Source: a virus. Taken from it: a stretch of DNA of 44,226 bases. The position numbers and the translations under genes were made by a program. The notes beneath the pieces were generated by a model that was not told the origin of the DNA, ran no database searches, and saw nothing but the letters and a program-made list of their open reading frames with translations. Location of the stretch: the UHGV virus genome UHGV-0346409; one strand, 5' to 3'. Below, one piece after another: positions 1 to 16,650 of this stretch. Position 1 is the first letter of the stretch; the number at the start of each line of letters is the position of its first letter.

Positions 1-93
1 CGTTTTGCTCGCAAACTCGTCACTTGAACAAAATTGCACGGACAGGGACTGTTAAAATGCCAAATTTCCTGGCATCATGGCAACCATCTGAAC

Positions 94-183
94 GGAGAGA
101 TGCCGGAGCGGCTGAACGGACCGGTCTCGAAAACCGGAGTAGGGGCAACTCTACCGGGGGTTCAAATCCCCCTCTCTCCGCCA
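94..183 (+). tRNA. serU: tRNA-Ser, anticodon CGA (90 nt, long variable arm, encoded CCA)
   Basis: Cloverleaf readable by eye: acceptor GGAGAGA / TCTCTCC-G-CCA, anticodon loop CT-CGA-AA, T-arm GGGGG-TTCAAAT-CCCCC. Matches my recollection of enterobacterial serU. Confidence 0.9.
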
Positions 184-199
184 CTTTATCAATGACTTA
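123..199. repeat. attL core (3' 61 nt of tRNA-Ser plus 16 nt downstream)
   Basis: Identical base for base to 44128..44204. Identity stops at both edges. Confidence 0.9.
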
Positions 200-268
200 C
201 GTCACTCACTTTTCACCGTCGATCCCCCTGTTAGAACGGACTTAGAATATTCACTTAGAATTAGACCG

Positions 269-1297
269 TCACGGGTTTCTGCTCAGAACTGTGACATCCA
301 GCACCGGAATATCCAGAGTCGGAGAAACTGCAGGTTTGCGATCATACGTCAGCACCTGCGCCTCAGTTTTGTGACCAGAGAACAACTGCTTTTCTTTACT
401 GCTTCCGTCGTAGTCTGAGATCCCCTTCGCTTTTAAATCGTGAAACGTTCCCGTAATCGGGTAGCCCAGCTTTTCACTTGCCGCCGCCCTGGCTTTACGC
501 CAGATATCGTTAAATCCGGTATAACTGTATTGCCCGCCATATTTGTTACAGACCACGAAATGTTGTCCTCCCAACGATTTCGCCTGCTCAAGTGCGAACG
601 TCAGTCGCTCTGAATACTGTTTGATCTGCTTTTTGCCAGTCTTACCCTGTTGGATAAACAAACCCTTACTCATAACCTGATCCCACGTCAGCTTTCGTAT
701 ATCGCCGATCCGCGTGGCGCACAGATAGGCGATCTCCATCGCGCACTGTAAAACGGGAGATGCCTCCTGATAAATTGCGATATATTCCTCGTCCGTGAAA
801 TAGTAGTCGCGGGGCTTGAGGGAAAATTTACTGACGCCCTGGCATGGATTCCCTTTTACGTATCCGCGTTCGTATCCCCAGCGGAATACTCGCGACATAC
901 TGGCTTTTTCATGGTTCGCCTGTGTTTTGCTTTTCAGCCCCCGCTTGTCCATATACAGCCGCACGTGAGCAGGTTTTATGTTGTCGGCTTTCATTTTCCC
1001 GAACGCGGCGAGTAATTTCTTCTGGTGCTGCAGATAATCCTTTTGTGTACGCTGACCGAGTTCCAGATAGTAGGTGCTGTTGAGAAATTTGTTCCAGAGT
1101 TTACTGAACGTCATGACATCAATAGCATCATTCAGGATCTCTTCGTATTTCACCCATACCTGAGCAATTGACAGATCATTAATTTTACCCAGCGTAATAC
1201 ACTCTCGGGGCGTTGGTTTGAAATAATAGCTGTATTTGTTTTTATAAACGCGGGGTGGCAGCTTATTATCTTCCGCGCTTTTTCGTGTTCTGCTCAT
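269..1297 (-). CDS. int: Tyrosine recombinase / phage integrase
   Basis: 342-aa ORF directly downstream of the tRNA. C-terminal catalytic-type motifs (ATRIGD..., HDLKA..., LFSGHKTE...Y). N-terminal arm-binding-like region. Confidence 0.9.
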   Translation of the reverse strand: MSRTRKSAEDNKLPPRVYKNKYSYYFKPTPRECITLGKINDLSIAQVWVKYEEILNDAIDVMTFSKLWNKFLNSTYYLELGQRTQKDYLQHQKKLLAAFGKMKADNIKPAHVRLYMDKRGLKSKTQANHEKASMSRVFRWGYERGYVKGNPCQGVSKFSLKPRDYYFTDEEYIAIYQEASPVLQCAMEIAYLCATRIGDIRKLTWDQVMSKGLFIQQGKTGKKQIKQYSERLTFALEQAKSLGGQHFVVCNKYGGQYSYTGFNDIWRKARAAASEKLGYPITGTFHDLKAKGISDYDGSSKEKQLFSGHKTEAQVLTYDRKPAVSPTLDIPVLDVTVLSRNP

Positions 1298-1512
1298 CAG
1301 ATTGCATCAAAATTTGGTTGTTCTTCTTCGGCAATCTGCACGGACCTTGCTCCGGACAGCGCAGCGTTTACATGCGTCCATGTGACGCGAGGTCGCCCAT
1401 CGCGGCGTTTTACATAAGAGATCCCGGCACGGGTCAGGGCGCCGCATTGTTTTGACGGGAACTGGTAGCCGGTCAGTTCAACCAGTTCCTCGTCGTTTAA
1501 CAGATCGTTCAT
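1297..1512 (-). CDS. DUF4224-like small DNA-binding protein in the excisionase position
   Basis: 71 aa. The motif LNDEELVELTGYQFPSKQ...GRPRV is typical of the DUF4224/Xis-like family. Its stop overlaps the int start. Confidence 0.65.
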   Translation of the reverse strand: MNDLLNDEELVELTGYQFPSKQCGALTRAGISYVKRRDGRPRVTWTHVNAALSGARSVQIAEEEQPNFDAI

Positions 1513-1702
1513 GGTCTTTCCTCATTATGTAGCTTATTGCGTCATCTGCCACATGGCAGGCACGGGCAATATCAGACTCGGTCAAGGCCTGTTTCCTGAC
1601 GCTGGCCGACAGTCGGCCAATTTTGATATCAAATGCGGAGAGCAGAGTTGCTCCCGGTTGCCATCGCAGCATTGTGATCCTCCTGTTACTGGTGAATCGC
1701 AA
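1478..1702 (-). CDS. Hypothetical early protein
   Basis: 74-aa ORF in the operon orientation. The 3' end overlaps the next gene start by 35 nt. No recognisable family. Confidence 0.35.
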   Translation of the reverse strand: MRFTSNRRITMLRWQPGATLLSAFDIKIGRLSASVRKQALTESDIARACHVADDAISYIMRKDHERSVKRRGTG

Positions 1703-1721
1703 TGCTAGCGATGGTGAGTTT

Positions 1722-1904
1722 TTATTTCTGATTAGGCGTAATCAGTTCTGGTGGGGGGAATGCCGATTTCTCCCGCGTGACCTTAATGTTTTCTGGCAGG
1801 TGTAGCCCAAGTTCGCAGCGACTCCGTGCTTCAATAATGCCATTGGTACCATCGGCAAGTACCAGGTGAACCGCGTCACCACGCTTTAATGTGAGTTTAA
1901 GCAT
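1722..1904 (-). CDS. Hypothetical early protein
   Basis: 60-aa ORF. Its ATG overlaps the upstream stop (TAATG), suggesting translational coupling. Confidence 0.45.
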   Translation of the reverse strand: MLKLTLKRGDAVHLVLADGTNGIIEARSRCELGLHLPENIKVTREKSAFPPPELITPNQK

Positions 1905-2473
1905 TAGCGTACCCTCAGCGAACGTTCGCCGCGTTCCAGATGTGCGCCTGGTACCGGGTTTAATAACTCGGCTGGTGGTGTTTCTCCACGCGCCAGTATT
2001 TCGGCGGCAACCGCCTCCGCAGATTCAATCACTTCTTTAATGGCTCGCTTGTTTGGTGTAATAACCGTTTCTACATCAACAAGTGACACGCCTTCATACT
2101 CATCCGGGATCTTATCTTTGCTATCGATAATTACCCGGATAGCCCCCTGTGCATCAGTAAATGTGTTTTTTGCGGTTTTTAGTTTATCCAGGCCAGCAGC
2201 TTGCAGGCAGGCGAGCATATGCTTCCGAATTGCTTTTTCCTTGCCTTCAAAGGACGTCTTACGGGTAGCCAGGCGAGACATTTCTTCAGCGCAGGTACTG
2301 GCATTGCCCTGTAAATTGCGGCAGATGACCATCATGGCGTCCAGTTTGTCTCCCAGTTCTCCTTCCATACCTTCAAGTGTGTCGGCGATCATCTCTGGCG
2401 TCAGTTCGTCGGAGGTTTCCAGCAGGTCAATCAGGCTGGCGTATTCTTTTGCAATAGCGATAGCGGTGCTCAT
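1904..2473 (-). CDS. Siphovirus Gp157-family protein
   Basis: 189 aa. The N-terminal E..L..LL...TLEGMEGE pattern and the C-terminal VPGAHLERGERSLRVR match the Gp157 family as I recall it. Confidence 0.8.
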   Translation of the reverse strand: MSTAIAIAKEYASLIDLLETSDELTPEMIADTLEGMEGELGDKLDAMMVICRNLQGNASTCAEEMSRLATRKTSFEGKEKAIRKHMLACLQAAGLDKLKTAKNTFTDAQGAIRVIIDSKDKIPDEYEGVSLVDVETVITPNKRAIKEVIESAEAVAAEILARGETPPAELLNPVPGAHLERGERSLRVR

Positions 2474-4692
2474 GCTGTTTGCTCCTGTGCGGCGGCGAGA
2501 GCGGCGAGGCGTTCGGTTTTGATTTCATTCAAACGGCGCAGGCGCGAACCAAGATAAGTTGAATACTCCTTATCACCTTTGGATTCTGCGGCTTTGCGGT
2601 GAACTTCTACTTCCCGCGCAATAAGGCCATAGACTTTATTAACTTCATTGGGGGTTACGGCTGCAGCCAGTGTTTTGGCAACACCTGAGAGTCGTTCATC
2701 CAGTTCTTCACGCAGTCGGGTAGCATCCTCTGCTTTCTCGCTTGCCTTCTTAATACCGTATTCTGTATTCAGCTCGGCGGTGTAGGCACTATCGTTATGC
2801 ATATCCATATAAACATCTGCCGCAAATCCCAGATGAGATAGTGCTTTGACGGTGGCATCAGTAAGAGACTTTTTGGAGGCCTCTTTTTCCATTACCAGTG
2901 CCCCTTTGTTATTTTTTGATATGTAATCCGTGTGGCCATATGACGGAATAAATCCTTTCACTCCGTTCCAGACGTACCAGAGATCTATCCGGATGGTGTG
3001 TACTGACAGGCAGAACAGGGAGCCGTCAGCATCCCTGACAGGTTTTTGTCCAATAATTTTCCCTGTCTGATCCTGTATAGGTTCAAGTAATGGCACACCG
3101 CGATCCACTCGCTCCTCCTTGATTTCAACTCCCCAACCAATGCCTTCCATTCCCAGCACTTCAGTCGCACGCATCAAAATATATTGTGCGCGTATGGAGT
3201 GCAGTCCTGCACCGTAATCATTATGTGTGACATACGCAGGATCGGTCCGCTGAACGCGATTCCAGATAGCCAAATTTGCTTTGCTCTGGTCATCATTCAT
3301 TGCTGACAGATAATGCTCCATGCGAATTGATGCAGTTTTTTCCTCGGTATGGATCCGCTCAACCAGAGCGTCAACGTTCTGCACCAGGTCTTTTACCTGC
3401 TCGCTAAGTTTTTCTTGTGGAGGAGTCTCTTCTTCCAGGATAACAGTTACAGATTCCCGCTGTGATACGGCGTTATTTTCTGGTACGCCATACACATGGC
3501 GGGGCGTGACAAACTGCTCACGCAACTGCTGCAAACTACGCTCTCCAGCATTTGCTGCTTCGCTTTTTTCGCCCTGATTTGAGGGGGGTTCTGACATCAT
3601 CCCATCGATTGAGAATCGCCCGCCGCCGTGGTTGGTGACTTTTACATCACCCTTTGGTGCTGCGTCCTTTGGCTTCTCTTCAACAGCATTTGCATCACGC
3701 TGCCCGTTAGCTTGCAGCCAGTTGTCGATGTGACTGCGCAGGGATTGCGGGAAATGGTACGTGTCTTTTGCGGGGGCACTCTGAACGACACCGAATACGG
3801 ATGCCCGGTCATAGGAAAGGATCTGATCCGTTGTGCGCAAGGCCATTGACCAGCGTTTAAAATCCTCCCGATCCTGGCTGATTATTTCGTCTGCCGCTTT
3901 CAGGACGCTGGGGGTGATTTTTTCCGGGCCAACGGGTAACAGAGCGCAGGCAATTTCACGATCCAGTGTAGCGTGAGTCTGTTTGTAAGGACGTGCGGAT
4001 GCTGTTTCTGGTTTTACCTCCGGCAGCATTTCATCGCGTTTACCGGGATTCTCTACCCATTTTTTTATAAATTTGGAGATAGTCCAACTGGTCGGGTTTT
4101 GTTCCTGGGTATCGCAACTTGCCAAAATTGCATGTACCAGATTATTCAATCCAGCAATATGCATGTACTCGATGGGCTTACACGCCACCATGGCATCAAG
4201 AACGATGCGGTTAAACGCGTCAACCTCATCCTCACTGTCAGTATCACTGTTGTCGAGCATCTCCAGGTATTCACGCGTCTGCGCAAGCAATTCACTGTTG
4301 ACTTCGTTGGCGTCGTGGCTGAACAGCAGAACGGCGGCGAATCGTTCACGAGCCGGCAGTTTCATCAGGTCGTTAACCTGTGCGATATCTGCTGAACCGC
4401 TATCTACAACGGGGGTGTTAACTACCCATTTTTCGCCATCAAAACTGTGTTCTGTGGCGAACGTCTCATCAAACTCACCAACGCCTGGGCGCGGTTGGCC
4501 CGGGGCATCTTCCCAGATTTTAGGTTTGAAATAGTTGTCGCCGTGGTCAGGGTAGGCTTCCCACAATTTGCCGATGATGATGTTCTCGGCAACTTTTTTG
4601 TTAGGGGCGTCGATGGCGATGGCCAGCGCCGGGATCGCGCCGTTTTTGAGCGCGCCTTTTTTCGCTTCTAACAAGCCGTTAAAAATGGTCAT
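2470..4692 (-). CDS. Large recombination-module protein; C-terminal Rad52/Sak-like single-strand-annealing domain, N-terminal two-thirds unassigned
   Basis: 740-aa ORF. The C-terminal segment ...IRAQYILMRATEVLGMEGIGWG...KKSLTDATVKALSHLGFAADVYM resembles the Rad52/Sak fold signature. ATGA overlap with the Gp157 gene. Confidence 0.6.
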   Translation of the reverse strand: MTIFNGLLEAKKGALKNGAIPALAIAIDAPNKKVAENIIIGKLWEAYPDHGDNYFKPKIWEDAPGQPRPGVGEFDETFATEHSFDGEKWVVNTPVVDSGSADIAQVNDLMKLPARERFAAVLLFSHDANEVNSELLAQTREYLEMLDNSDTDSEDEVDAFNRIVLDAMVACKPIEYMHIAGLNNLVHAILASCDTQEQNPTSWTISKFIKKWVENPGKRDEMLPEVKPETASARPYKQTHATLDREIACALLPVGPEKITPSVLKAADEIISQDREDFKRWSMALRTTDQILSYDRASVFGVVQSAPAKDTYHFPQSLRSHIDNWLQANGQRDANAVEEKPKDAAPKGDVKVTNHGGGRFSIDGMMSEPPSNQGEKSEAANAGERSLQQLREQFVTPRHVYGVPENNAVSQRESVTVILEEETPPQEKLSEQVKDLVQNVDALVERIHTEEKTASIRMEHYLSAMNDDQSKANLAIWNRVQRTDPAYVTHNDYGAGLHSIRAQYILMRATEVLGMEGIGWGVEIKEERVDRGVPLLEPIQDQTGKIIGQKPVRDADGSLFCLSVHTIRIDLWYVWNGVKGFIPSYGHTDYISKNNKGALVMEKEASKKSLTDATVKALSHLGFAADVYMDMHNDSAYTAELNTEYGIKKASEKAEDATRLREELDERLSGVAKTLAAAVTPNEVNKVYGLIAREVEVHRKAAESKGDKEYSTYLGSRLRRLNEIKTERLAALAAAQEQTA

Positions 4693-4722
4693 TGGTCTTT
4701 CCTCATTACAGGTCAGTGGTTT

Positions 4723-5043
4723 TTAGTAGGGGAGCTCATCGGTATCTGGCGTGTATTCGATGCAAAGTAACTGCTGGATTTTGTCATCGATAGCAGCAAT
4801 ACGCTGTTGAGCGTCGGCGGCTGTATTCTGTTTTTGCTCACGCAGCTGCTCGACCTGCAAACCGATGATGTCGATTGGCTGGGGCTGGTTGACGGTAATT
4901 TCAATTTCGCGGCTTTCCAGAAGGATGTACCTGTCTGGAAAATTTTTTGACATATCAACCGTCGCAATAAACAGCTTTTCATGGCTGAAAGTTGAAGTTG
5001 CATAATGAATAAAGAGTGTTACTGGGATGGTGCGCGCTTCCAT
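4723..5043 (-). CDS. Hypothetical early protein with coiled-coil-like C-terminus
   Basis: 106-aa ORF with AGGAG 6 nt upstream of the ATG. The overlapping 96-aa ORF (4713..5003) looks like a shadow frame. Confidence 0.55.
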   Translation of the reverse strand: MEARTIPVTLFIHYATSTFSHEKLFIATVDMSKNFPDRYILLESREIEITVNQPQPIDIIGLQVEQLREQKQNTAADAQQRIAAIDDKIQQLLCIEYTPDTDELPY

Positions 5044-5127
5044 AGCGACTCCTTGGTGATGTATACTCGGGACCGATCAGCGAATATTGATCAGCTTCCA
5101 TAGCGTCAGTGTCGTTGGTCTTTCCTC

Positions 5128-5151
5128 ATCACAAGTTTGGTCACTTGTGAT
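5128..5151. repeat. Perfect 9-bp inverted repeat ATCACAAGT-N6-ACTTGTGAT
   Basis: Read directly. It sits just beside a degenerate GAGGAAAGACC cassette. Confidence 0.6.
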
Positions 5152-5186
5152 AAATCCGAATGGTTTGGTCGCCGTTCGGGGTAACT

Positions 5187-5209
5187 GGCCCGCCTTGTGC
5201 GGGTCTTTT
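5187..5209 (+). terminator. Intrinsic-terminator-like hairpin oriented on the plus strand (antisense to the early-left leader)
   Basis: GGCCCGC-CTTGT-GCGGGTC followed by TTTTG on the plus strand. The minus-strand reading has no U tract. Confidence 0.4.
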
Positions 5210-5415
5210 GCTATCTAAAGGGTGCCGGTTACGTTTCCGGCGTCGTTATGTTTCCATCACGACCGTACGGGGCTGGTCTTTCCTGTTTTGAGCTGGTCAG
5301 GCTCATGGTCAACGCTGGTCAGGCGTGGTACTTCCTCCGGTCTTTCCCTGGTGTCACGCTGCGGGTTTGGCCTCTCCTGTTGGGGACTCAGGCACAGCGA
5401 TAAAACCTGGCTGTG

Positions 5416-5445
5416 TGAAAAAATGGCCCATCGTGCGGACTGGGC
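5416..5445 (-). terminator. Intrinsic terminator inside the early-left leader
   Basis: Minus strand reads GCCCAGTC-CGCAC-GATGGGC followed by CATTTTTTC. Confidence 0.55.
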
Positions 5446-5477
5446 AAAGACTAAACACAGCAAATTGATGATGGGCG

Positions 5478-5517
5478 CCCGGAATCGAACCGGGTAACGG
5501 GCAGGGAGTTCCCGTTA
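5478..5517 (-). ncRNA. Two abutting hairpins: 7-bp stem with 9-nt loop, then a tRNA T-arm-like CCCGG-TTCGATT-CCGGG
   Basis: Minus strand reads TAACGGG-AACTCCCTG-CCCGTTA followed directly by CCCGG-TTCGATT-CCGGG. No full cloverleaf can be drawn. Confidence 0.45.
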
Positions 5518-5891
5518 AACACCTGTTCACCACAACCGGGAGCGCACTCCGCCATTTCAAAATTTAACGACAAAGCTCAAAGTTGAGTCGATGAAGTGCG
5601 CTCTCGTGTTGTAGCCAGGACTCTTCCCTGGTGGTCACACCGTATCGCCTTGATGGTGAATCAATCGCTCATACCTGGCTGTGGCTTGCACATTCCGGCT
5701 ACCTGCTATGGAGACAACGCGTTAAGGCTCCGCTTCCATCCAGACCGCTTCGACACATGTGCCATATGCCGGCGAAGTCTTTCCCTCTGTCATCGTGTTG
5801 GCGCCGACGCGCAAAATTTGATGCCGTCTTTCCGGCTGTCAGAACGTGTTTCTGAACAACTGCCGCTGGGTAAGCGTTGTTGATGAAAGTG

Positions 5892-5920
5892 ACTTTACAA
5901 TTTGTATTTGTAATGGTCAA
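5892..5920 (-). promoter_or_regulatory. Candidate PL promoter with embedded operator (OL)
   Basis: Minus strand reads TTGACC-17 nt-TAAAGT. The 17-bp operator TACAATTTGTATTTGTA (5896..5912) sits between -35 and -10 and matches the OR operator consensus TACAA-N7-TTGTA. Confidence 0.55.
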
Positions 5921-6039
5921 CGTATTTTTAAAAAATAATTTGTAGTTAGGGGCAAAAAAATATTCACTGTGTAAAGGTGTTTTTGTGTTAGGGGGAAAGT
6001 TGCATGCCAGCAGCGGCTGGCCTGAAAATTTGAACTGAA

Positions 6040-6453
6040 CTATTTTGTCTGGTTTTTGGCTTCAAGTAGTTCTTTTAGCAGTAGATCGAAGTGCTCTCTT
6101 TTTTCTTTTAGCTCATTGATTAATTTATTTTTTTCGCTCTCAGGCAGTCCTCTGAATAGTTGCAGTAGAGCCTGTTCTTGCGGGGTTAGTTCTTGATTGT
6201 AATTACCCGGGTGTAGCGTGGATTCATCCAAATATTCCCCTTCATTCATGAAGAAAAAATGAACAGGGTATCCGGTCACTTTTGCTAGCTTGTCTAATTT
6301 ATCTTTTCTTGGAGTTACCCCATTACACCATGCCTGAACTGATTGAGCCGTAACCCCAATATGGCGAGCTAACTCAGATTGAGACCAGCCTAAGTCTTTT
6401 AGAATCCGTTGTAGTCGGCTAGCAAAAGCCATGTTTTTCGTTTTTGTGTTCAT
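6040..6453 (-). CDS. cI-like HTH_XRE prophage repressor, short form without S24/LexA-type peptidase domain
   Basis: HTH segment SQSELARHIGVTAQSVQAWCNG. Divergent from the cro-like gene. The ORF track begins at a TTG (6468); I prefer the ATG at 6453. The C-terminus is a short helical tail. Confidence 0.8.
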   Translation of the reverse strand: MNTKTKNMAFASRLQRILKDLGWSQSELARHIGVTAQSVQAWCNGVTPRKDKLDKLAKVTGYPVHFFFMNEGEYLDESTLHPGNYNQELTPQEQALLQLFRGLPESEKNKLINELKEKREHFDLLLKELLEAKNQTK

Positions 6454-6463
6454 ACCGTAAGGA

Positions 6464-6524
6464 TACAAGGTTTAATTGTAGGGATCATTGCAAATATAAT
6501 TTGTAATTACAGTTATGATTTGTA
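6464..6524. promoter_or_regulatory. OR region: three 17-bp operators (6464..6480, 6489..6505, 6508..6524) overlapping divergent PR and PRM candidates
   Basis: TACAAGGTTTAATTGTA, TGCAAATATAATTTGTA and TACAGTTATGATTTGTA. On the plus strand, TATAAT at 6495..6500 (PR -10). On the minus strand, TACAAT at 6480..6475 (PRM -10). Confidence 0.6.
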
Positions 6525-6551
6525 ATGATGGCGCGGACACAAGGAGTCCAT

Positions 6552-6782
6552 ATGGATAAACAACTGCAAGACAAAATTCTTTCCGTAATGAGTCAATCCG
6601 AGTTAGGGCGGCGATTAGGGAAAAAACCACAAACGGTAAGCCTCTGGTTCAAAGGAAGGGTTCCCGGTGAAGAGGTTTTGCGCACATCTGAAGCTCTTGA
6701 ATGGCGCGTGACCCCCCATGATCTTAGACCGGATCTTTACCCAAACCCAGATGACAGCTTGCCTAAAACGAAAGCAGCTTAA
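6552..6782 (+). CDS. Cro/YdaS-like small HTH regulator
   Basis: AAGGAG lies 6 nt upstream of the ATG at 6552. The sequence SQSELGRRLGKKPQTVSLWFKG...VTPHDLRPDLYP resembles the YdaS family. Confidence 0.75.
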   Translation: MDKQLQDKILSVMSQSELGRRLGKKPQTVSLWFKGRVPGEEVLRTSEALEWRVTPHDLRPDLYPNPDDSLPKTKAA

Positions 6783-6840
6783 CTGTTGGTGAGCCCCAAA
6801 TCTGATTAAGCGTAATCAATTTTTAGCGACAGGAGACGCT

Positions 6841-7317
6841 ATGGAAAACCAAGAGGAATTACAAAAAGAGATTTTGACCTGGGCGGCAAGGGCAGGGCAG
6901 GAACTCGTCACGATTGAAATCTGCCGGGCCTAGTTCAGTCAGGGACGCAATGATGAGTTGAGACTACATGAATTTGAGGACGCGGACGGCAATGTGGACT
7001 GGAGAGCCATCAACAACAATCGGCAGAAAATCTTTCGCTGGTTACGTGGCGAGACAACGGCGGCGCGCCGAAAAACTCAGGTGCTGGCCAGTGTGATGAA
7101 AGCCGTGCTACCCGCAGAACGGCGGGCACGTCTGGAGTCGCCGGGCGATCCCGTTTTGCTGGCAACGCTGGCGGCAAAAGAAGGGGTGGAAGCGATTAAC
7201 GCTGTACATCTCCACTTCGCGCCAGAGTTAACTATCCAGGAAATTGACGAAGCAATAGCGGCGCTGGTAGCGACGCGAGGAGCAGTGATACGCACTGCGC
7301 AAGACCACCATGCATGA
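6841..7317 (+). pseudogene. ydaT/CII-like regulator interrupted by an in-frame amber (TAG 6931..6933)
   Basis: ATG 6841 has a strong AGGAG RBS and 30 codons run up to the TAG. The same frame continues into ORF 6958..7317. KIFRWLRGET and VLPAERRARL match my recollection of Rac YdaT. Confidence 0.7.
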
Positions 7318-7356
7318 GCGCCTGACCAGCGTTTAACTTATACCGAGGAAAGACCG

Positions 7357-7581
7357 ATGTTAAGACATATTGACCGCATTACCTGGCGTAACGGCTGGCA
7401 CCTGAATGGGCGCCCGGCACATGTTGCAGAGATCCAACCTATTTTTGATGGGCGTATGGCTGCCGCGCTTTCGGTGTGGGAGCAGTATGAATCCAGGAAG
7501 GTCGAGTTGCGCGACAAAGGGCTGAGCAATGCGGACTATGAAGCCGGTTGTCGTCAGATAGCCGAAGCTCTGGAGATCTGA
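7357..7581 (+). CDS. Hypothetical early-right protein
   Basis: 74-aa ORF preceded by the conserved GAGGAAAGACCGATG cassette. Confidence 0.5.
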   Translation: MLRHIDRITWRNGWHLNGRPAHVAEIQPIFDGRMAAALSVWEQYESRKVELRDKGLSNADYEAGCRQIAEALEI

Positions 7582-7583
7582 GT

Positions 7584-8648
7584 ATGAGTCGTTTGCTGAT
7601 TAACGAAAACCCCCTTCAGGTCCTGCCCACGTTGGCATGCACTATAGGGTTGAATGAAGCCATCGTTCTACAGCAAATCCACTACTGGCTGAATTCATCT
7701 CAAAATTTCTTCGAAAATCGCCACTGGGTGTACAACAGTGTGACCGATTGGCAAGAACAATTCCCGTTCTGGAGCGAGTCGACAATAAAACGCGTGCTGG
7801 CCAATCTGGAAAAATTGAATGTGGTATTTACTGGGAACTTTAACAGTGATGCCTGGGATAAAACCAAGTGGTATTCAATCAATTATGCCCAGTTATGTAA
7901 GATTGAAGAGACAACATTCCCTGTGGCCAATCGATTAGGTCAAGTTGACCCAATCGAAGAGGTCAATGTGACCCAAGCATCAGGTCAAGTTGACCCATGC
8001 GCTAAGGTCAAAATGACCCAATCTCTTACAGAGAATACAACAGAGAGTACTACAGAGATAAAAGATCCCCCTTACCCCCAAAAGGGGGAGGGCGAGGAAA
8101 TCATTCTCGCTGACGCTCAAAAAGCTCTGAACTACTACAACGAGAAAGTCGGTACACGCTGCCGCGATGTTAAACCGTTTGTCATGCTGCTGACTGCCAC
8201 CACCACCCGCGCTGGTTACAGCGTGGCTGAGATTCAGTTAGTAATTCGTTGGGTTATTGCGACATGGCGCCGTCGTAGCGGAAGCGTGCCGAAACCTGCG
8301 AACATTTGCCGCGTAAACCGGTTTGACGGATATCTGGCTGACGCTGAGGCGTGGGCCACTGCTGAGGCTGCCGTTGACCCTGCTGAAGTTGTGAAGAGCT
8401 ACAACGAGATTCTGGGCGACCTGCTACCTATAGCTGAAATTGATACTGACCGCCGTCGGGCAATCCTGCGCCTGCTGGCACATATGCGCACGCAAACTCT
8501 TGGCGCATTTATCGGCTACTTCGAAAAATTCCGCGATAACGCCCCAGACTTCTATTTCGGCGGCGAATATCGCACCGGCTGGCGGGCAGGGTTTGATTAC
8601 CTGATGAAGCCAGAAACACTGCGTAAAACCAGGGAAGGGGCATTATGA
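7584..8648 (+). CDS. Replication initiator (lambda O-like position; conserved phage C-terminal domain)
   Basis: The N-terminal region is like phage replisome organisers and there are internal iterons. The C-terminal segment YYNEKVGTRCRD...VIRWVIATW resembles the conserved phage C-terminus family. Start chosen at MSRLLINE. Confidence 0.72.
   Translation: MSRLLINENPLQVLPTLACTIGLNEAIVLQQIHYWLNSSQNFFENRHWVYNSVTDWQEQFPFWSESTIKRVLANLEKLNVVFTGNFNSDAWDKTKWYSINYAQLCKIEETTFPVANRLGQVDPIEEVNVTQASGQVDPCAKVKMTQSLTENTTESTTEIKDPPYPQKGEGEEIILADAQKALNYYNEKVGTRCRDVKPFVMLLTATTTRAGYSVAEIQLVIRWVIATWRRRSGSVPKPANICRVNRFDGYLADAEAWATAEAAVDPAEVVKSYNEILGDLLPIAEIDTDRRRAILRLLAHMRTQTLGAFIGYFEKFRDNAPDFYFGGEYRTGWRAGFDYLMKPETLRKTREGAL
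7938..8020. repeat. Candidate ori: four iterons GGTCAANNTGACCCA at 7938, 7961, 7983 and 8006
   Basis: Read directly. Spacing is 22-23 bp, each iteron is internally palindromic, and an A/T-rich tract follows. The arrangement is like lambda ori inside gene O. Confidence 0.7.
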
Positions 8649-10036
8649 ATCCAGAAGAACTGGAAGCGATCGTTCTCGCTGGTCTGATTAACGGTGGCGC
8701 GACGCCTGACGCGTTTGATGTGATTGCCACTACTCCGGAGGAAGCCTTCAGCATCGTGTTTCACCGTCGCGCTTTCAGCGAAATCAAAAAGCAGGCACTG
8801 GCGAACGGCATGATCGACATGTTGTTTATCAGCGAAGCGCTGGGCGGTTCCAGCCTTGCGGATCTGTCTCAAATATCCCGGATCCCGGCAACGGTACCGA
8901 ATCTGAAAGGCTATGCCGGGAAAATGGTGCGGGCATGGCGGAGCCGCAAAATGGCGGCATTGTTGCAATCTGGCGCGGATGGTATCCGTAACGCTGTAAA
9001 CCAGAGTCAGCGTGATGAGGTTATTGAATCTCATGTTGCTCAGGTGCTGGATATGAGCGCCGCTACCGGCACAGTCCAGCCGGTACACATCAAAGAGCTG
9101 TTACCGCTCTACATTGACACCGTTGATAAACGGATGTCTGGTGACGCGCAGGAAATGATGCTGAAAACCGGAGTCGAGGATCTGGATGTCGCCCTGGGCG
9201 GTATCAACATGACCGATCTTGTTGTGGTTGCCGGTCGTCCAGGCATGGGGAAAACGGAATTTACCCTGAAGATTATCGATGGCGTTACCGCAGATGGCGG
9301 CGGCGCACTGTTTTTCAGCATGGAAATGGGCGCTCAGCAGATTGTTGAACGTACCGTTGCCGGGGCTGGGAATATGTCAACGTCGCGTCTGCGTAATCCA
9401 AAAGAAATGGACGATGAGGATTTGACCAGATTAACCGCCGCGCTTGCAATCATGCAGGATCGCGATATCTGGATTGTTGATGCCACTGATTTGACGATTG
9501 AGCAGATCCGCGCCATTGCAGAGACTCATAAACGCCGTTATCCGCACCTGAAGTTGATTGGTGTTGATTACATGGGCCTGATCAAAAAACCGAAGGCCGA
9601 GCGCCACGATCTCGCTGTCGGGCATATCTCCCGCAACATGAAGACTATGGCCATGCGTCTGCATACCCCTGTTTTTGCTCTTAGCCAGCTTTCCCGCCAG
9701 GTGGATTCTCGACCTGCTGGCCAGCGTCGCCCGGTGATGTCGGACCTGCGCGATTCCGGCAGTGTTGAGCAGGACGCTGACAGCATTTTGTTTTTGTACC
9801 GCGATGAAGTTTACACACCTGATTCACCTGCAAAGGGTATCGCCGAGGTGATTATCGGTAAAAACCGTTCTGGCGGGGCAGGTGAAATTATTTATCAGGA
9901 ATTCCGGAATGGGCATTTCCTGCCAATTGATCAACACGTAGCACGCGAAAAAATACGCATCCAGAAGGAGGCAGAGCAACCGAGAAAACGTGAAAAACGG
10001 TATTCAAACAAAAACTTTAATACGGACCCATTTTAA
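8645..10036 (+). CDS. DnaB-family replicative helicase
   Basis: Walker A GRPGMGKTEF, plus SMEM, ALSQLSRQVDSR and IIGKNRSG motifs. ATGA overlap with the initiator gene. Confidence 0.9.
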   Translation: MNPEELEAIVLAGLINGGATPDAFDVIATTPEEAFSIVFHRRAFSEIKKQALANGMIDMLFISEALGGSSLADLSQISRIPATVPNLKGYAGKMVRAWRSRKMAALLQSGADGIRNAVNQSQRDEVIESHVAQVLDMSAATGTVQPVHIKELLPLYIDTVDKRMSGDAQEMMLKTGVEDLDVALGGINMTDLVVVAGRPGMGKTEFTLKIIDGVTADGGGALFFSMEMGAQQIVERTVAGAGNMSTSRLRNPKEMDDEDLTRLTAALAIMQDRDIWIVDATDLTIEQIRAIAETHKRRYPHLKLIGVDYMGLIKKPKAERHDLAVGHISRNMKTMAMRLHTPVFALSQLSRQVDSRPAGQRRPVMSDLRDSGSVEQDADSILFLYRDEVYTPDSPAKGIAEVIIGKNRSGGAGEIIYQEFRNGHFLPIDQHVAREKIRIQKEAEQPRKREKRYSNKNFNTDPF

Positions 10037-10074
10037 CCACGCATGACCAGCGTGAAATAACCGAGGAAAGACCA

Positions 10075-10476
10075 ATGACCCAATTAATTAACCACACGAG
10101 TGCACACTATAGTGACGACGGTAAAAACTACCTGGATTCAATTCTGTGGCACATGAACGCAGCCGCGCGAGCACGTACCCGCTCGACATATTGCCCGCCA
10201 CCTAAAAACACTGACGTTGTGGTAATTGCAAAACCTGAGCACGTAGCAGTTATTCGCCCGGCAGAAATAACCTCAGGGACCGCCAAAACACATACCGGCG
10301 TTGTTATTAAAAATACTGGTGAGCGCACAGTAAAACTCCGCGAAACAGCGACTGCGTGGTCTGCGGGTGTAAGGGAGAACTACGATAAAAAAACAGGTTA
10401 CCGCTTAGGCGCATCAGGCAGCACCCGGTTGTTACTCGACACCGTGAAGCCCATCAGGAAGAAGGGCAAAAAATAA
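10075..10476 (+). CDS. Hypothetical protein
   Basis: 133-aa ORF preceded by GAGGAAAGACCAATG. Confidence 0.55.
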   Translation: MTQLINHTSAHYSDDGKNYLDSILWHMNAAARARTRSTYCPPPKNTDVVVIAKPEHVAVIRPAEITSGTAKTHTGVVIKNTGERTVKLRETATAWSAGVRENYDKKTGYRLGASGSTRLLLDTVKPIRKKGKK

Positions 10477-10709
10477 TGACTGGCGCAGATTATCTCCCGG
10501 CTGGGTTGCCACACAACAGGGCAGCATGGCCGCAGGAGTATCAAATACTGGAACATTACGATTTGCGCGCCGCCGGGCTGATTCGCCAGTTATACGAAAA
10601 ACGAATACCACGCGGCACGGTTACAGAGGCGTTGAAAAATACTCCTGATAATTACCGGGAGTTTTTCAGGGACCGACTGAATTACTGGAGAGGGGAACGA
10701 GAAAAATGA
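10476..10709 (+). CDS. Hypothetical protein
   Basis: 77-aa ORF with start/stop overlap (TAATG) with the previous gene. Confidence 0.5.
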   Translation: MTGADYLPAGLPHNRAAWPQEYQILEHYDLRAAGLIRQLYEKRIPRGTVTEALKNTPDNYREFFRDRLNYWRGEREK

Positions 10710-10930
10710 ACGAAATTTTACTCGCATTTATTCCACGATTTATTAACGACAAAGTGGCGTTGAGTGCCGTTAATGATCAATACGAAATTGTATGCAGCAT
10801 GATCGACATTATCCCCGGTGAGCAGTATGACGCGATGTGTGACCTGAAAATATTCACGTGGTTGGGGTGGGCCATTCCGTGTGGAGAGCCAACAAATATT
10901 CGCCCGTTTGAGGGCAGGGAGGCTGTATGA
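10706..10930 (+). CDS. Hypothetical protein
   Basis: 74-aa ORF with a 4-nt overlap with the previous gene. Confidence 0.5.
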   Translation: MNEILLAFIPRFINDKVALSAVNDQYEIVCSMIDIIPGEQYDAMCDLKIFTWLGWAIPCGEPTNIRPFEGREAV

Positions 10931-11043
10931 GTGAGTTGAAAATACGTCGCAAGACAATAGCACGCGTTAAAAATCCATTACCGGCCCCCGCCGAATGCCA
11001 TTTTTGTGGTGGGAATGTACGGATTGGTACGTATGTATGGTGA
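10927..11043 (+). pseudogene. Possible 5' remnant of a zinc-ribbon (CxxC) phage gene, 38 codons
   Basis: ATGA-coupled ORF MSELKIRRKTIARVKNPLPAPAECHFCGGNVRIGTYVW. It stops just after the first CxxC, where related phage proteins (from memory) continue for about 60 or more aa. Confidence 0.3.
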
Positions 11044-11117
11044 TTGCGAAGTGACGTAAAACAAATCGTTGTGGGTGTAATATCGTCAATATCATTGGTT
11101 TCCTGGAGGGAAAGGAT

Positions 11118-11339
11118 ATGTTTGGCGATAACCTGGAGTTACCACGGAACGGGCGGATAGTGCTCTATATTTCAGATTACAAAGTAACCCGGGCTGAGGT
11201 GTTGGAACCGGAAAAACATTTGGTCACGTTACCGGACATTATTGAGTTGTATAAGCGGGTCGGATATGTGGACTTGCATCGCGATGATGTTCCCGTTGAG
11301 TGTATGGAATGTGAACACCGGAGGTTTGAAGTTGATTGA
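11118..11339 (+). CDS. Hypothetical protein
   Basis: 73-aa ORF with a GGAGGG RBS. Confidence 0.5.
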   Translation: MFGDNLELPRNGRIVLYISDYKVTRAEVLEPEKHLVTLPDIIELYKRVGYVDLHRDDVPVECMECEHRRFEVD

Positions 11340-11375
11340 ATTGACTTAGAAAAAGCCCGGGGCTATAGTTTCCGC

Positions 11376-11412
11376 GCAGCCGCAAAATCGGTTGCCGGGA
11401 TTTGCACCCCGG
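11376..11412 (+). promoter_or_regulatory. Two abutting hairpins upstream of the terminator (GCAGCCG-CAAAAT-CGGTTGC, then CCGGG-loop-CCCGG)
   Basis: Read directly. The geometry resembles the pair at 5478..5517. Confidence 0.4.
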
Positions 11413-11431
11413 ATATCTAAAAGGCGACAAC

Positions 11432-11451
11432 GACGCGCCAGCGTCTTTTTT
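11432..11451 (+). terminator. Intrinsic terminator closing the replication/nin operon
   Basis: GACGC-GCCA-GCGTC followed by TTTTTT. Confidence 0.65.
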
Positions 11452-11611
11452 ATTGTCGTGCGCACAGCCACATCCGCGATTTATGGTGGGGCGTGTAGGG
11501 GAGTCGAAAGGCTCGCCGGGTCCTTTTAGCCGGTAGTGCAAACCCTGCATGTCTCACCACCCAAAGATTTGCACCTGAGGGGGGTGATTATCCGACTAAA
11601 AGGAAATCGCT

Positions 11612-12406
11612 ATGACAACTCAAGTATCCGCAGCAGCCATCTCCCCGATTATCCACAACCAACTTCCCGTCCTCACCACCGAATTACTCGCGAATCTCTA
11701 TGGCACAGAGCCGGATTACATTCGTAAAAACCATAACCGGAACTCAGAGCGATTCGTGGTCGGGAAGCATTACTTTTTGCTCGAAGGTGAGGAGTTGCGC
11801 GAATTTAAGCACAGCATGTCTTTAAGACCTCCTGTGAAAATCGCCAGAAATGTCCGCTCTCTCATCCTCTGGACAGAACGCGGCGCAGCTCGCCATGCCA
11901 AAATGCTGGAAACAGAACAGGCCTGGGAAGTTTTCGAAAAGCTGGAAGATTGTTATTTTAGCCAGCGTCCAGAGAGGCGGAGTACAACCACCGATGACCG
12001 CACTCCCTTACGTGATGCCGTTAATATGCTGGTCGGTAAGAAAGGCATGATGTATCCCGATGCCTACACCATGATTCACCAACGTTTCGCCGTCTCTCAC
12101 ATAGAACAACTGTCACAGACGCAAATGTTAGAGGCGATTGAATACATCCACTGCCTGCTACTCGATGAAAATCAGCCAACCATTCCAGATTTTTCTTTTA
12201 TCACCACTATCAAAAATGGAAAAGTGACCAGGATGCGCCATGTTGCCAAAGGCGAACATCTGATGACGTTTGACGCTTTCAAAGAGATCGCTGAGCGGGC
12301 AGGGTATCTGGTGATCCACAGCGACAACCTGCGAAGTATGACGCTGGATAAATTGATGGTAATGGGGAAAAAGTCGGTTGTATCCGTTGCTGATTCAGCA
12401 TTTTGA
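11612..12406 (+). CDS. ORF6N-domain protein, antirepressor-like regulator
   Basis: The N-terminal segment LPVLTTELLANLYGTEPDYIRKNHNRNSERFVVGKHYFLLEGEEL fits the ORF6N pattern. RBS is AAGGAAA. Confidence 0.65.
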   Translation: MTTQVSAAAISPIIHNQLPVLTTELLANLYGTEPDYIRKNHNRNSERFVVGKHYFLLEGEELREFKHSMSLRPPVKIARNVRSLILWTERGAARHAKMLETEQAWEVFEKLEDCYFSQRPERRSTTTDDRTPLRDAVNMLVGKKGMMYPDAYTMIHQRFAVSHIEQLSQTQMLEAIEYIHCLLLDENQPTIPDFSFITTIKNGKVTRMRHVAKGEHLMTFDAFKEIAERAGYLVIHSDNLRSMTLDKLMVMGKKSVVSVADSAF

Positions 12407-12435
12407 CAGGTTGAATGTTTGGCGCGGTTATACTC

Positions 12436-12515
12436 TATTTGCGCTTAAAAAGGTATTTAGTCACAACCAGCACGAGGCCGAATACTCTGTCAAAGTACCG
12501 CCCATGTAAAACTGT
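12436..12515. repeat. Diverged copy (5 substitutions, 1 indel) of the 3' end of the 2-TM gene at 16037..16117; frameshifted gene remnant
   Basis: Aligned by eye. The minus strand would read ...QFYMGGTLTE, then a 1-bp deletion, then VFGLVLVVTKYLFKRK-stop. Confidence 0.8.
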
Positions 12516-12583
12516 TACGTATGTACTTGATGACTAAGCTGGCACCAGGTTAACACCAGGCGCCAGCTTGAAGGAAACTTCAG

Positions 12584-13507
12584 TTATTGGTTTCTGAGGA
12601 AAGCGATTCTTGAAAGGGTCATTTGCGTCTGGCAGTCGACCATTTTCTTGACTTCAGCATCTGTTCCCTGCATTGAAACTTTACCGCACATAGCATCCTT
12701 AGTTTTGATCCACTGACGCTGAGAAGGCAGCAACTCTTTTTTCTTCGCCGGCGTTAACCTGCCCCAGACTGTATTCAAATCAGAGTCAGCATTCGCAAAT
12801 GCCATTCGGGACTGATCAAGGCTTTCAGCTTTTTGCGGCTGAAGTTGTGCCTGCCTCTCTATTTGCTTCTCCGCCTCATACCTGGCCTGTTCCTGTGCCC
12901 TGAGTTGCACCTGTTGTTCCGCTTCAATTTGACTCTGTTGGGCATCCTTAGCCTGCTGGATTTTCTGCTGCTCAACGATCGGGTTGATAATGGAAAGCGA
13001 TGTCAGTAAAGCGGCGCCCACTGATATCGGATTATCAGAAGAGGTTTTTACAAAAACGTTTTTCTGATCGTCGGTCGCCTGCACGGTGTAGGTGATACGT
13101 TTTGAAAAGGCGTTTGCGTTGTTCTCCAAAAACAGATTTTCCATTTGCTTATCGAGATTACGATTAAAATTCTTTCGGTAAGCATCAGAAAGCTGGATGT
13201 ACTCGTTCGCAGGTAGAGTCATCGTCACGGTCCCTTCACAAGTTTTCATTGTGCTGCCCGTGTCACTTGATGTTGTGGAGATTTCAGAGACGGCTAGTTT
13301 GATCTTGTCCAGTGTGCTTCGTTTGGTCTGATTAGTGACATCAGGGTATTTATCGACCTGTTCAGAGAGTCCTTCATAAGCAGATTTTTTTAATAAATCC
13401 ATGAGAGCTGATTGGGTCATTTCCGAAGAACAACCGATCTCATCTTTTTTGTTATCACAGCCTGTAAGGGCAATGGCGAGTAAGAGTACTGAGTATTTTA
13501 ATCTCAT
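12584..13507 (-). CDS. Lipoprotein with C-terminal DUF1311 (LprI-like) domain
   Basis: Lipobox LLAIALTGC, a Q/E-rich coiled middle, and the C-terminal segment LNTVWGRL...QRQWIKTKDAMCG typical of DUF1311. Confidence 0.72.
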   Translation of the reverse strand: MRLKYSVLLLAIALTGCDNKKDEIGCSSEMTQSALMDLLKKSAYEGLSEQVDKYPDVTNQTKRSTLDKIKLAVSEISTTSSDTGSTMKTCEGTVTMTLPANEYIQLSDAYRKNFNRNLDKQMENLFLENNANAFSKRITYTVQATDDQKNVFVKTSSDNPISVGAALLTSLSIINPIVEQQKIQQAKDAQQSQIEAEQQVQLRAQEQARYEAEKQIERQAQLQPQKAESLDQSRMAFANADSDLNTVWGRLTPAKKKELLPSQRQWIKTKDAMCGKVSMQGTDAEVKKMVDCQTQMTLSRIAFLRNQ

Positions 13508-13647
13508 GAATTCCCTTTAGAGTAAGGATTGGTTTTTAAGACGCGGTCTGTAATCAGTTCCGAGAGCTACAGTAAACAACGCTGAGCACTGAACGCATCA
13601 CAGGCAAGGTAAAAGGTGATATCGGCAAAGGCTGTGAAACCTTTAAT

Positions 13648-13848
13648 TCAACAGATGGGAACGGTATGCACAGGATCCTGTAACGACGCTCCCAAAACCG
13701 GAAACCTGTAAGGCATGTTTTCGCTGCTGAACTTAATATACGAACCTGCACTATCATGAACATATTTTATATCGTTATACCCCGAGTGATTGTGCCCGGC
13801 AATGGATAGTGTCCTGGAGGAACTATTTCTACTGTAAAAGGTAGACAT
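13648..13848 (-). pseudogene. Possible 3' fragment of a metallophosphoesterase-like gene
   Basis: The GHNH ... DSAGS spacing is reminiscent of the C-terminal motifs of calcineurin-like phosphoesterases. There is no N-terminal part, and an overlapping second frame (13554..13763) suggests decay. Confidence 0.2.
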
Positions 13849-14133
13849 TTAATTTCAGTGTGGAATTATTCCCTGCTGTTAATAACCATGGCTCTATATG
13901 GCACCGAGCGGACTAGTTAACTTGCCTGAAAGCCGCTATGAGTGAGGAGCGAATATTGGCACGATAGGATACCTGAACCATTTTTTGGACATGCGCTAAA
14001 AGCGAATGATTAGTTTTATCGGAATATTTACAGTATACTTACAAGGCAAGCTTGGCGTACCGTCTTGGGCGAGATTGCTTAAATTATTTTGTGGATATAT
14101 CATTCAAACAAAAGATAATAAAATGAGGTTGTT

Positions 14134-14331
14134 ATGTCATATATTCGCGTAGAGAAAGATGGCCTTCAGTATGAAGCAGAATACTTCCGTGAAGAGGATA
14201 TGGTCACAGTCTTTGGGGTTAGAGGAGGGCATTCCAGCGTGGTTCTAAATGGAATGACAGAAGTCGCGGCTGCTCGTACTGCGTTACGAAATCTTATTAG
14301 AGAAAATCAGGTTGATCCTCTAACTGATTAA
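14134..14331 (+). CDS. Hypothetical small protein
   Basis: 65-aa ORF with a GAGG RBS, in the AT-rich island. Confidence 0.45.
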   Translation: MSYIRVEKDGLQYEAEYFREEDMVTVFGVRGGHSSVVLNGMTEVAAARTALRNLIRENQVDPLTD

Positions 14332-14535
14332 AAATAAGCCATCTTAACTGAGAGCATATTTTGATATAATTTAGATTAAATCTATTTTGAAGGTTAGTTT
14401 GGGATGAGAAGATTACATCAAAACCGTTATTACTAGCAATAAGTTGTGTAAATCAAATAATACATAATCAGGTGGTAATATATACTAAGCGTAGTAAAGT
14501 TTTTATATATTCCTGTAACTTTGTGAGAAACTTCC

Positions 14536-15201: not shown

Positions 15202-15288
15202 AGTGTTACATTTTAACTATACAATTATTGATTCACTAATGAAGAGGTGATTTAGACGTATGAAGTTTTAATAAGCTCCAAGAATATT

Positions 15289-15433
15289 TTGTCATACATG
15301 GGTTAAAGAGTTATATAATAATATCTGCTTCTGGAACACAGCAGACAAGCACCTGCAGATAAAGGTCTGCTGAGAGCGAGAAGCGGATCATACGTTGGAA
15401 GTTGTTTAGGCAAATACGTTATAAACGTATTTG
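15289..15433 (+). promoter_or_regulatory. Candidate promoter (TTGTCA-17-TATATA) and structured 5' leader of the 134-aa gene
   Basis: Mutually exclusive hairpins: TCTGCT/AGCAGA (15324..15345) versus CAGCAGAC/GTCTGCTG (15339..15372). Also a perfect 10-bp-arm palindrome CAAATACGTT-ATA-AACGTATTTG (15411..15433). Confidence 0.4.
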
Positions 15434-15521
15434 ATTAAATTTACTTGGATCATAGTCTTCAATAACGCTTTATTATATTGTTTTTCATGCAGCAAACAGG
15501 TTCACAGGTAGGTAATAAGCT

Positions 15522-15926: not shown

Positions 15927-16035
15927 CACTCGAACACACTCAGTAATCGTCTATAAGGCCAGCACTTGTTACTTGGTCATTTGGGGTTGCTGGTCTTCTC
16001 CATTAAATCGACTAAAGTCTGTTCCATAGAGAGAG

Positions 16036-16641: not shown

Positions 16642-16650
16642 TCTAAAGCG

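Follow-up and report, generated by a model that had tools for sequence, protein, structure and literature searches.

An amber codon at a former Dcm site in the ydaT gene of an Escherichia coli serU prophage

What does it mean when the gene for a lysogeny regulator is interrupted by an in-frame stop codon: is it an assembly error, a stop that is read through or bypassed, or the mark of a gene that has been lost? This question is posed by a ydaT-family gene, an analogue of lambda cII, in UHGV virus genome UHGV-0346409, a stretch of 44,226 nt that constitutes the window of this study and from whose first letter all coordinates are counted. An original prediction, made from the letters alone, had placed an ATG start with an AGGAG ribosome-binding site (RBS) at 6841 and an amber codon (TAG) at 6931-6933, and had noted that the frame then runs on into an open reading frame (ORF) of 119 codons. 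All of these coordinates are correct on re-reading: the frame comprises 30 sense codons, the TAG and an open stretch up to TGA at 7315-7317, with TTG 6958 as the first in-frame start past the amber, yielding the 119-aa ORF. As argued below, we consider it very likely that the locus records a recent Trp31-to-amber null mutation in the CII-analogue gene of an otherwise intact prophage at serU, which arose by a transition at a Dcm hotspot and has been inherited vertically.

A split ydaT-family gene in the cII position

The split frame is not a chance arrangement of ORFs, because close relatives annotate the same 477 nt as a single intact coding sequence (CDS), a 158-aa 'toxin YdaT family protein' read from the same ATG. 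The repaired protein matches Pfam PF06254 (YdaT_toxin) with 57.4 bits (cutoff 21, E 2e-15), and phmmer aligns it with the YdaT structures 3c4r (E 2e-5) and 8bt1 (E 1e-4). An AlphaFold2 model, built on a natural intact allele (P0001) that is 99% identical to the repaired protein, has a pLDDT of 91.4 and helices at residues 4-18 (alpha1), 20-33 (alpha2), 54-69, 73-89, 92-99, 104-123 and 128-157. In a Foldseek search of the PDB, the six best matches to this model are all YdaT chains with a probability of 1.0, and no other match is significant. Judged by its Pfam profile, its matches to solved structures, its predicted fold (a five-helix POU-like helix-turn-helix (HTH) domain with a long alpha2-alpha3 loop, and a long oligomerisation helix), its place in the gene order and the inverted repeat next to it, the 158-aa protein is a YdaT-family regulator, which bears out the ydaT-like assignment of the original prediction. 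What is missing is an intact reading frame. Since codon 31 is TAG and the frame is intact in every full-length copy that was translated, the window carries a pseudogene allele of a YdaT-family member.

In the family alignment the protein also appears as a mosaic. Residues 1 to ~95, which comprise the DNA-binding domain, cluster with homologues from Klebsiella, Citrobacter and Salmonella (P0010, P0017), and residues ~96 to 158 (RARLESPGDPVLLA...) cluster with another subfamily (P0038-P0070), a pattern that suggests domain exchange within the family.

In the cryptic prophage CP-933P, YdaT switches on a PRE-like promoter located between ydaS and ydaT, which makes it a CII analogue (PMC8630535). 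It is a tetramer with a POU-like HTH (alpha2, a long loop and the recognition helix alpha3) and an oligomerisation helix alpha6, and it binds the inverted repeat TTGATT-N6-AATCAA (PMC9986795). Rac YdaT is also a tetrameric transcription factor with alpha3 as recognition helix, and is toxic when over-expressed (PMC11879457). It has been argued that ydaS and ydaT form a Cro/CII-like regulator pair and not a true type II toxin-antitoxin system (PMC8630535; PMC5917428). When the original prediction called YdaT a functional equivalent of CII, it was in line with published experiments (PMC8630535, PMC9986795), and tetramerisation, DNA binding and PRE-like activation are established for the CP-933P and Rac proteins only (PMC8630535, PMC9986795, PMC11879457).

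The protein encoded here shares PF06254, fold, gene position and type of inverted repeat with CP-933P YdaT from O157:H7 (8bt1) and with the O6:H1 homologue (3c4r), but differs from both in its low identity (~22-26% in structural alignments), in the Trp that replaces Tyr at position 31, in an additional C-terminal helix alpha7 (128-157) in the model, in its mosaic make-up with halves from different subfamilies, and in the truncation of the present allele at codon 31. With Rac YdaT of E. coli K-12 it has in common the family and a role in the immunity region, whereas toxicity and rcsA regulation have been reported for the Rac protein and are not known for this one; moreover, Rac is a cryptic remnant whereas the present prophage looks complete. 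The relation to lambda CII is one of function and position only. Both are activators of repressor synthesis, in lambda from a promoter between cro and cII, and are needed for the establishment of lysogeny and not for its maintenance (PMC8630535), but no sequence similarity to CII was found in a Pfam scan of the repaired protein, which returned YdaT_toxin alone. In addition, YdaT acts as a closed tetramer on an inverted repeat, lambda CII as a dimer of dimers on a direct repeat (PMC9986795).

Around ydaT, a leftward repressor gene is followed by rightward genes for a YdaS/Cro-like regulator, YdaT, a 74-aa ORF, an O-like replication protein and DnaB. This puts ydaT in the position of cII, with the YdaS/Cro-like gene before it and the replication genes after it. 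Between the ydaS-like stop codon and the ydaT RBS lies an inverted repeat (6802-6819) that resembles the CP-933P site in both motif and position (PMC9986795) and is the single match to TTGATT-N6-AATCAA at one mismatch or fewer in the window, against a chance expectation of 0.12. In loci with a different cro gene, homology to the window starts at 6800, just upstream of this repeat, so the operator-like site travels with ydaT. By its sequence, it is the presumed site of the PRE-like promoter that YdaT would activate. A sigma-70 promoter scan over 6000-7700 gave nothing above threshold, and the PR, PRM and PRE-like promoters were not placed.

Origin and lineage of the amber codon

The original prediction had derived the amber from TAT or TAC, on the grounds that YdaT has a Tyr at this place. 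Tyr is indeed the residue that aligns with position 31 in 3c4r and 8bt1, but a tyrosine codon as the ancestor is ruled out by alignment to the relatives. In the closest of them codon 31 is TGG, and within the ydaT gene the window departs from them at base 6932 alone. A 61-nt query centred on the codon found matches in 448 complete E. coli genomes, each with one mismatch, and the amber 61-mer itself in none (0/448). A degenerate pattern scan added 22 further carriers (7 metagenomic contigs, 1 Escherichia whittamii genome and 14 IMG/VR contigs), all of them with TGG and an open frame. Because the relatives and all 22 further carriers read TGG, the comparison of alleles in related prophages that the original prediction had proposed gives a clear answer: as read from these alignments, the event is a change of Trp31 to amber by G>A at 6932. 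Across the family alignment, 35 of 35 homologues have a sense residue at position 31, mostly W, Y or F, with Tyr the commonest.

The mutated base lies in a former Dcm site, and in the ancestral CCTGG the partner of G6932 is the inner C of the bottom strand, which is methylated. Deamination of 5-methylcytosine leads to T:G mismatches and then to C>T transitions unless these are corrected by VSP repair (PMC2715241), and the Dcm context suggests such an origin for G6932A. Methylated-C positions of this kind number 192 in the window, or ~0.9% of its G:C pairs. The change is like those at known Dcm hotspots, namely the lacI amber hotspots, reportedly the work of Coulondre and colleagues in 1978, and Lieb's hotspot in lambda cI, in that G:C to A:T at the methylated inner C of CCWGG creates an amber codon. 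It is unlike them in that the event is on the bottom strand, turning TGG and not CAG into TAG, and is seen as a fixed natural allele instead of in a mutation screen. Two more Dcm sites in ydaT are one deamination away from an amber codon (6878-6882, TGG to TAG at 6881; 7236-7240, CAG to TAG at 7237), and in a low-quality contig (L038) 1 nt is deleted at the first of the two.

Is the amber present in nature? When GTDB genomes, JGI metagenomes and IMG/VR were scanned for exact 37-mer matches to the TAG allele, there were none, which at first suggested an allele unique to the window. This view was overturned by ENA and Logan assemblies that carry it, in which the split gene was located by exact-product look-ups with the 30-aa N-terminal peptide and the 107-aa product of GTG 6994. 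The same TAG is present in ENA ERZ28649270 scaffold_103, which is 100% identical to the window over 5341-8817 (3.5 kb), in contig k109_14910 of ENA ERZ27293720, identical over 1-16,933 (16.9 kb) with the host junction included, and in Logan SRR18173910, identical over 6700-10,117 (3.4 kb). A look-up of the 119-aa TTG product gave no match, because the gene callers had picked the 107-aa GTG product. With three separate datasets carrying it on DNA identical to the window, the amber is a genuine, heritable allele and not an assembly error. Set against four or five near-identical prophages, the 44 kb of the window contain three derived single-nucleotide polymorphisms (SNPs) and no more, at 6485, 6932 and 19864, and the derived bases are missing from the complete genomes that carry the respective segments (6485T 0/437, 6932A 0/448, 19864T 0/442). 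The 6485T base is found on the same contigs as the amber, and the protein with the T40M change caused by 19864T is encoded on 9 public contigs, the amber-bearing ERZ28649270 scaffold among them; since they are linked in this way, the three bases mark one circulating lineage. The 6485 change also makes a GATC (Dam) site.

The sceptical alternative would be that position 6932 is in truth a G, misread in the consensus as an A, for instance because nanopore base calling failed at a Dcm-methylated motif. The change falls exactly in a CCWGG motif, default Oxford Nanopore (ONT) models put ~70% of consensus errors in Dcm motifs (PMC6591954), and the allele is missing from the 448 complete genomes. Yet the three datasets with the identical TAG were separately assembled and have flanks without a single difference from the window, and on one scaffold the amber is linked to the other two lineage SNPs. 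The contig name k109_14910 resembles short-read assembler output, the platform being confirmed for none of the datasets. Of 96 Dcm sites in the window 95 are unchanged, and its 44 kb contain no private indel, a quality unlike the ~0.4% Dcm error rate of unpolished ONT assemblies. Given the independent assemblies, the intact Dcm sites and the lack of private indels, we dropped the artefact as scarcely credible; the sense codon that the original prediction had allowed for, in case of an assembly error, is not what these assemblies contain.

Three short contigs from unrelated datasets (L042/L047, L043 and L044; SRR10005882, SRR35556696 and GCA_001076125.1) end at window positions 6930-6932, and all have the 6485-G haplotype, i.e. 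they do not belong to the lineage of the window. These ends could lie at a branch of the assembly graph where TGG and TAG coexist in the sample, in which case the hotspot would have been hit independently; they could also be due to chance, aided by the look-up method.

Consequences for the protein, for lysogeny and for selection

In the model, the amber falls near the end of alpha2, the first helix of the HTH motif, and the 30-residue product would be unable to form the DNA-binding domain. The isolated monomeric YdaT domain does not bind DNA, and an intact POU-like domain and tetramerisation are both needed (PMC9986795; PMC11879457). Because translation from the strong start would stop after 30 residues inside alpha2, the amber allele is expected to be null. 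The family has nine invariant positions, and three of these (W14, A15 and G19) are upstream of the amber. Together with the use of the upstream ATG by the relatives, this disproves the idea that homologues start downstream, an outcome that the original prediction had named as fatal to it.

Of the consequences that the original prediction had considered, a defective allele is supported by these data, whereas suppression or read-through and a truncated product from a restart fare badly. Functional expression despite the stop would require that the amber is suppressed or read through (supE, supF, supD or natural read-through), or that a restart at TTG 6958 makes a working truncated regulator. The frame past the stop is fully open for 128 codons, with the restart codon only 24 nt on, and Tyr is the commonest residue at this family column, so that a protein with Tyr inserted by supF would probably be active; given how young the mutation is, the downstream frame should be open in any case. 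Against such expression, a stop at codon 31 occurs in 0 of 470 other carriers screened (the 448 complete genomes and the 22 further carriers) and is limited to one clonal lineage; across homologues it is unconserved (0/448, 0/22, and 0/35 in the family alignment). ARAGORN found no suppressor tRNA in the window, with the rest of the host genome outside its view. The sole tRNA of the window is a tRNA-Ser, and although serU is the classical supD suppressor locus, its normal, wild-type CGA anticodon rules out the supD form. With the stop confined to one clonal lineage and the only tRNA not a suppressor, programmed read-through is without support. Amber suppressors are rare in natural isolates, and the U that follows UAG favours efficient termination. 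As to a restart, TTG 6958 has no properly spaced Shine-Dalgarno (SD) sequence and has to vie with three out-of-frame ATGs, of which those at 6950 and 6953 open a three-codon ORF and that at 6968 one of 42 codons. Its product would comprise residues 40-158, without alpha1 and alpha2, so that the DNA-binding domain would be left with three of its five helices, and without W14, A15 and G19, and the five-helix domain is required for DNA binding (PMC11879457). Taken together, we regard functional expression from this allele as very improbable. A strong polar effect on the replication genes through Rho is also unlikely, because the untranslated RNA past the amber is G-rich (C/G <1 in every 80-nt segment up to 7333) and would load Rho poorly.

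The following sequence of events would account for the allele. During lysogeny establishment, the YdaT tetramer would bind the inverted repeat between ydaS and ydaT and switch on the PRE-like leftward promoter of the repressor gene. In one host lineage, a G:C to A:T transition at the methylated C of CCTGG would have escaped repair and converted codon 31 from TGG to TAG, leaving a null allele. Because a phage with a CII-type null mutation would lysogenise poorly, the mutation most probably arose after integration, and would then have been inherited vertically. For the lysogen it would be costless, because an established prophage is held by its repressor and not by a CII-type activator, and the loss may even help, because Rac YdaT is toxic when expressed. 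Lambda cII-minus mutants form clear plaques. By analogy, establishment of lysogeny should be impaired and prophage maintenance unaffected: the repressor would maintain the prophage normally, and virions, if made, would establish lysogeny as poorly as cII-minus lambda.

Where ydaT is intact, its sequences indicate that it is under purifying selection (pooled pN/pS 0.22, with 15 synonymous and 9 non-synonymous segregating sites, for 13 distinct intact alleles from 26 loci). Other assemblies have disruptions of their own: a 125-nt deletion in GCA_001982485.1 that takes half of the operator-like site, the RBS and 33 codons, a change of GGA35 to TGA (ERZ21843525), a 7-nt repeat-slippage deletion (SRR11427713), a 16-nt deletion (ERZ28591227), the 1-nt deletion in contig L038, and several C-terminal frameshift products. 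This pattern fits a gene that is needed in infection and dispensable in a resident prophage, where, by analogy with the Rac protein, YdaT may even be harmful. Could its loss then be an adaptive domestication, selected in the lysogen since leaky or stress-induced YdaT is toxic or mis-regulates host genes, with the 6485 SNP perhaps part of the same adaptation? Rac YdaT kills when expressed and activates rcsA of the host (PMC11879457), other assemblies contain five or more independent alleles with a disrupted ydaT N-terminal region, and two of the three lineage SNPs lie inside the 1.3-kb immunity region (P ~0.003 if that region had been named in advance, but it was chosen after seeing the SNPs). 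On the other hand, CP-933P YdaT is not toxic (PMC8630535), the count of disruptions has neither a denominator nor a control gene, two of the disrupted contigs are of low quality (L038) or have runs of N (L036), a hotspot mutation arises without selection, and the stop is missing from the 448 complete genomes, with the full-length alleles from the 26 loci intact and under purifying selection. We consider adaptive domestication unlikely. Equally doubtful is its broader form, in which loss of YdaT would be a recurrent, positively selected domestication step, with the Dcm sites at 6878, 6929 and 7236 as fast knock-out routes, and with selection, not neutral decay, behind the disruptions (W31am, G35opal and the 1-, 7-, 16- and 125-nt deletions) and the 6485 SNP.

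Several points weigh against the explanation that we favour, a null allele acquired at a Dcm hotspot in an integrated prophage. The dcm status of the host is not visible from the window. The three datasets could come from one study or host lineage, in which case they prove the base call and not a wide spread. As far as the letters go, low-level UAG read-through, or a restart at TTG 6958 or GTG 6994, may occur. The predicted lysogenisation defect may never be seen if the prophage is not inducible, and any selective advantage of YdaT loss would have to be derived from an enrichment of disruptions over neighbouring genes that has no denominator.

The prophage, its other features and implications

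The window is a whole temperate prophage of E. coli, from attL to attR, at the tRNA-Ser gene serU between mtfA and yodB, as concluded from a 77-bp direct repeat (att; 123-199 and 44128-44204) and from the position of the host junction and the tRNA-Ser. It starts just past mtfA, with the tRNA-Ser gene at 94-183, and matches E. coli Z0117EC0040 (NZ_CP098211) over its entire 44,226 nt, apart from 6 substitutions and 1 indel. The annotation of the relative describes a complete-looking temperate phage with an integrase, a lambdoid early region, a Q antiterminator, lysis genes, and head and tail genes. The gene affected by the 19864 SNP sits just upstream of the Q antiterminator gene. The structural module (24000-44100) is a hybrid in which a lambda-like packaging and head half (terminase, gpW, portal, S49 protease, decoration protein, major capsid and gpFI) is joined to a P2-like contractile-tail half (baseplate V/W/J/I, sheath, tube and late control D), and it includes a small superinfection-immunity gene on the opposite strand. 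A blastn search of a phage record collection at a distant setting gave just four matches at 60-80% identity, to Stenotrophomonas and Pectobacterium phages, and no close relative. The features of the ydaT region and the lineage SNPs are collected in Table 1.

Table 1 Features of the ydaT locus, the immunity region and the lineage SNPs in the window.
Feature	Position	Strand	Basis or remark
CI-like repressor gene (HTH_3)	6040..6432	-	Pfam HTH_3, E 1.9e-12
Lineage SNP 6485 G>T	6485		Repressor/cro intergenic region, 2 nt left of the palindromes at 6487-6525
Two adjacent 19-bp palindromic repeats, operator-like (putative)	6487..6525		Repeat search; divergent repressor/cro control region
YdaS/Cro-like regulator gene, 76 aa	6552..6782	+	Pfam YdaS_toxin (E 1e-8) and HTH_3
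YdaT-operator-like inverted repeat CTGATT-AAGCGT-AATCAA (CTGATTAAGCGTAATCAA)	6802..6819		Match to TTGATT-N6-AATCAA in 11/12 bases
Shine-Dalgarno AGGAG	6831..6835	+	Read from sequence; 5-nt spacer before ATG 6841
ydaT-family (CII-analogue) gene, 158 codons, now a pseudogene	6841..7317	+	PF06254, intact CDS in relatives, predicted fold
Part still translatable from the strong start: 30 codons (alpha1 and most of alpha2) and amber	6841..6933	+	Translation; helix boundaries of the model
Former Dcm site	6929..6933		CCTGG in all relatives, CCTAG here
Amber TAG (Trp31 to stop, G>A at 6932)	6931..6933	+	Sequence and alignment to relatives
Lineage SNP 6932 G>A	6932		The amber
Residual 119-codon ORF from TTG: part of the alpha2-alpha3 loop, alpha3 to alpha7	6958..7317	+	ORF list and model
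Lineage SNP 19864 C>T	19864	+	T40M in DUF1364/YbcO-family protein, gene 19746-20039

The start of the repressor gene at 6432 was taken from RefSeq relatives, and the open frame reaches up to TTG 6468. The protein, a 130-aa helix-turn-helix protein according to the annotations of RM10042, TUM11353 and STEC434, is short and has no recognisable cleavage domain; its YdaS/Cro-like neighbour is labelled 'transcriptional regulator' by RefSeq in the relatives. About 10 kb from the repressor, at ~16036-17139 on the minus strand, a gene for an ImmA/IrrE-family metallopeptidase and an adjacent 201-aa gene may constitute a separate regulatory or defence module, or provide the induction protease of this phage. 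In the closest complete genome, NZ_CP098211 (Z0117EC0040), the CI-like repressor gene has a 1-nt deletion, at 7246-7253 of the extracted locus, corresponding to window position 6254, and RefSeq thus annotates the repressor as two CDS of 64 and 68 aa. That strain is a lysogen with a split repressor gene, raising the question of how its prophage stays silent.

Beside the immunity region, in a ~1-kb stretch without annotated genes (5044-6039), positions 5416-5526 on the minus strand give a full-length, sub-threshold match to the RprA small RNA (sRNA) family (RF00034; 37.4 bits against a gathering score of 70, E 0.004-0.03). The match retains the conserved 3' core UUGCUGUGUuUAGUCUUUGCCC and a stem with U-run terminator, and by its sequence could be a prophage-borne RprA-like sRNA or a mimic of one.

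Both the gene family with its role and the hotspot with its type of mutation were known before, and the case is one of ordinary pseudogenisation without a new mechanism. For annotation, the locus is best described as a ydaT pseudogene, and not as a 'YdaT family protein' of 119 aa from a TTG or 107 aa from a GTG start; public gene calls split it into pieces of 30 aa and 107 aa (or 119 aa). The case shows that a transition at a Dcm site can be distinguished from a sequencing artefact at a Dcm site, and the combination of 6485T, 6932A and 19864T provides a handy marker with which to track this E. coli lineage in metagenomes. If inducible, the prophage is predicted to yield phage that lysogenise poorly, and so would spread mainly vertically, providing a small natural example of a temperate phage becoming locked into its host.

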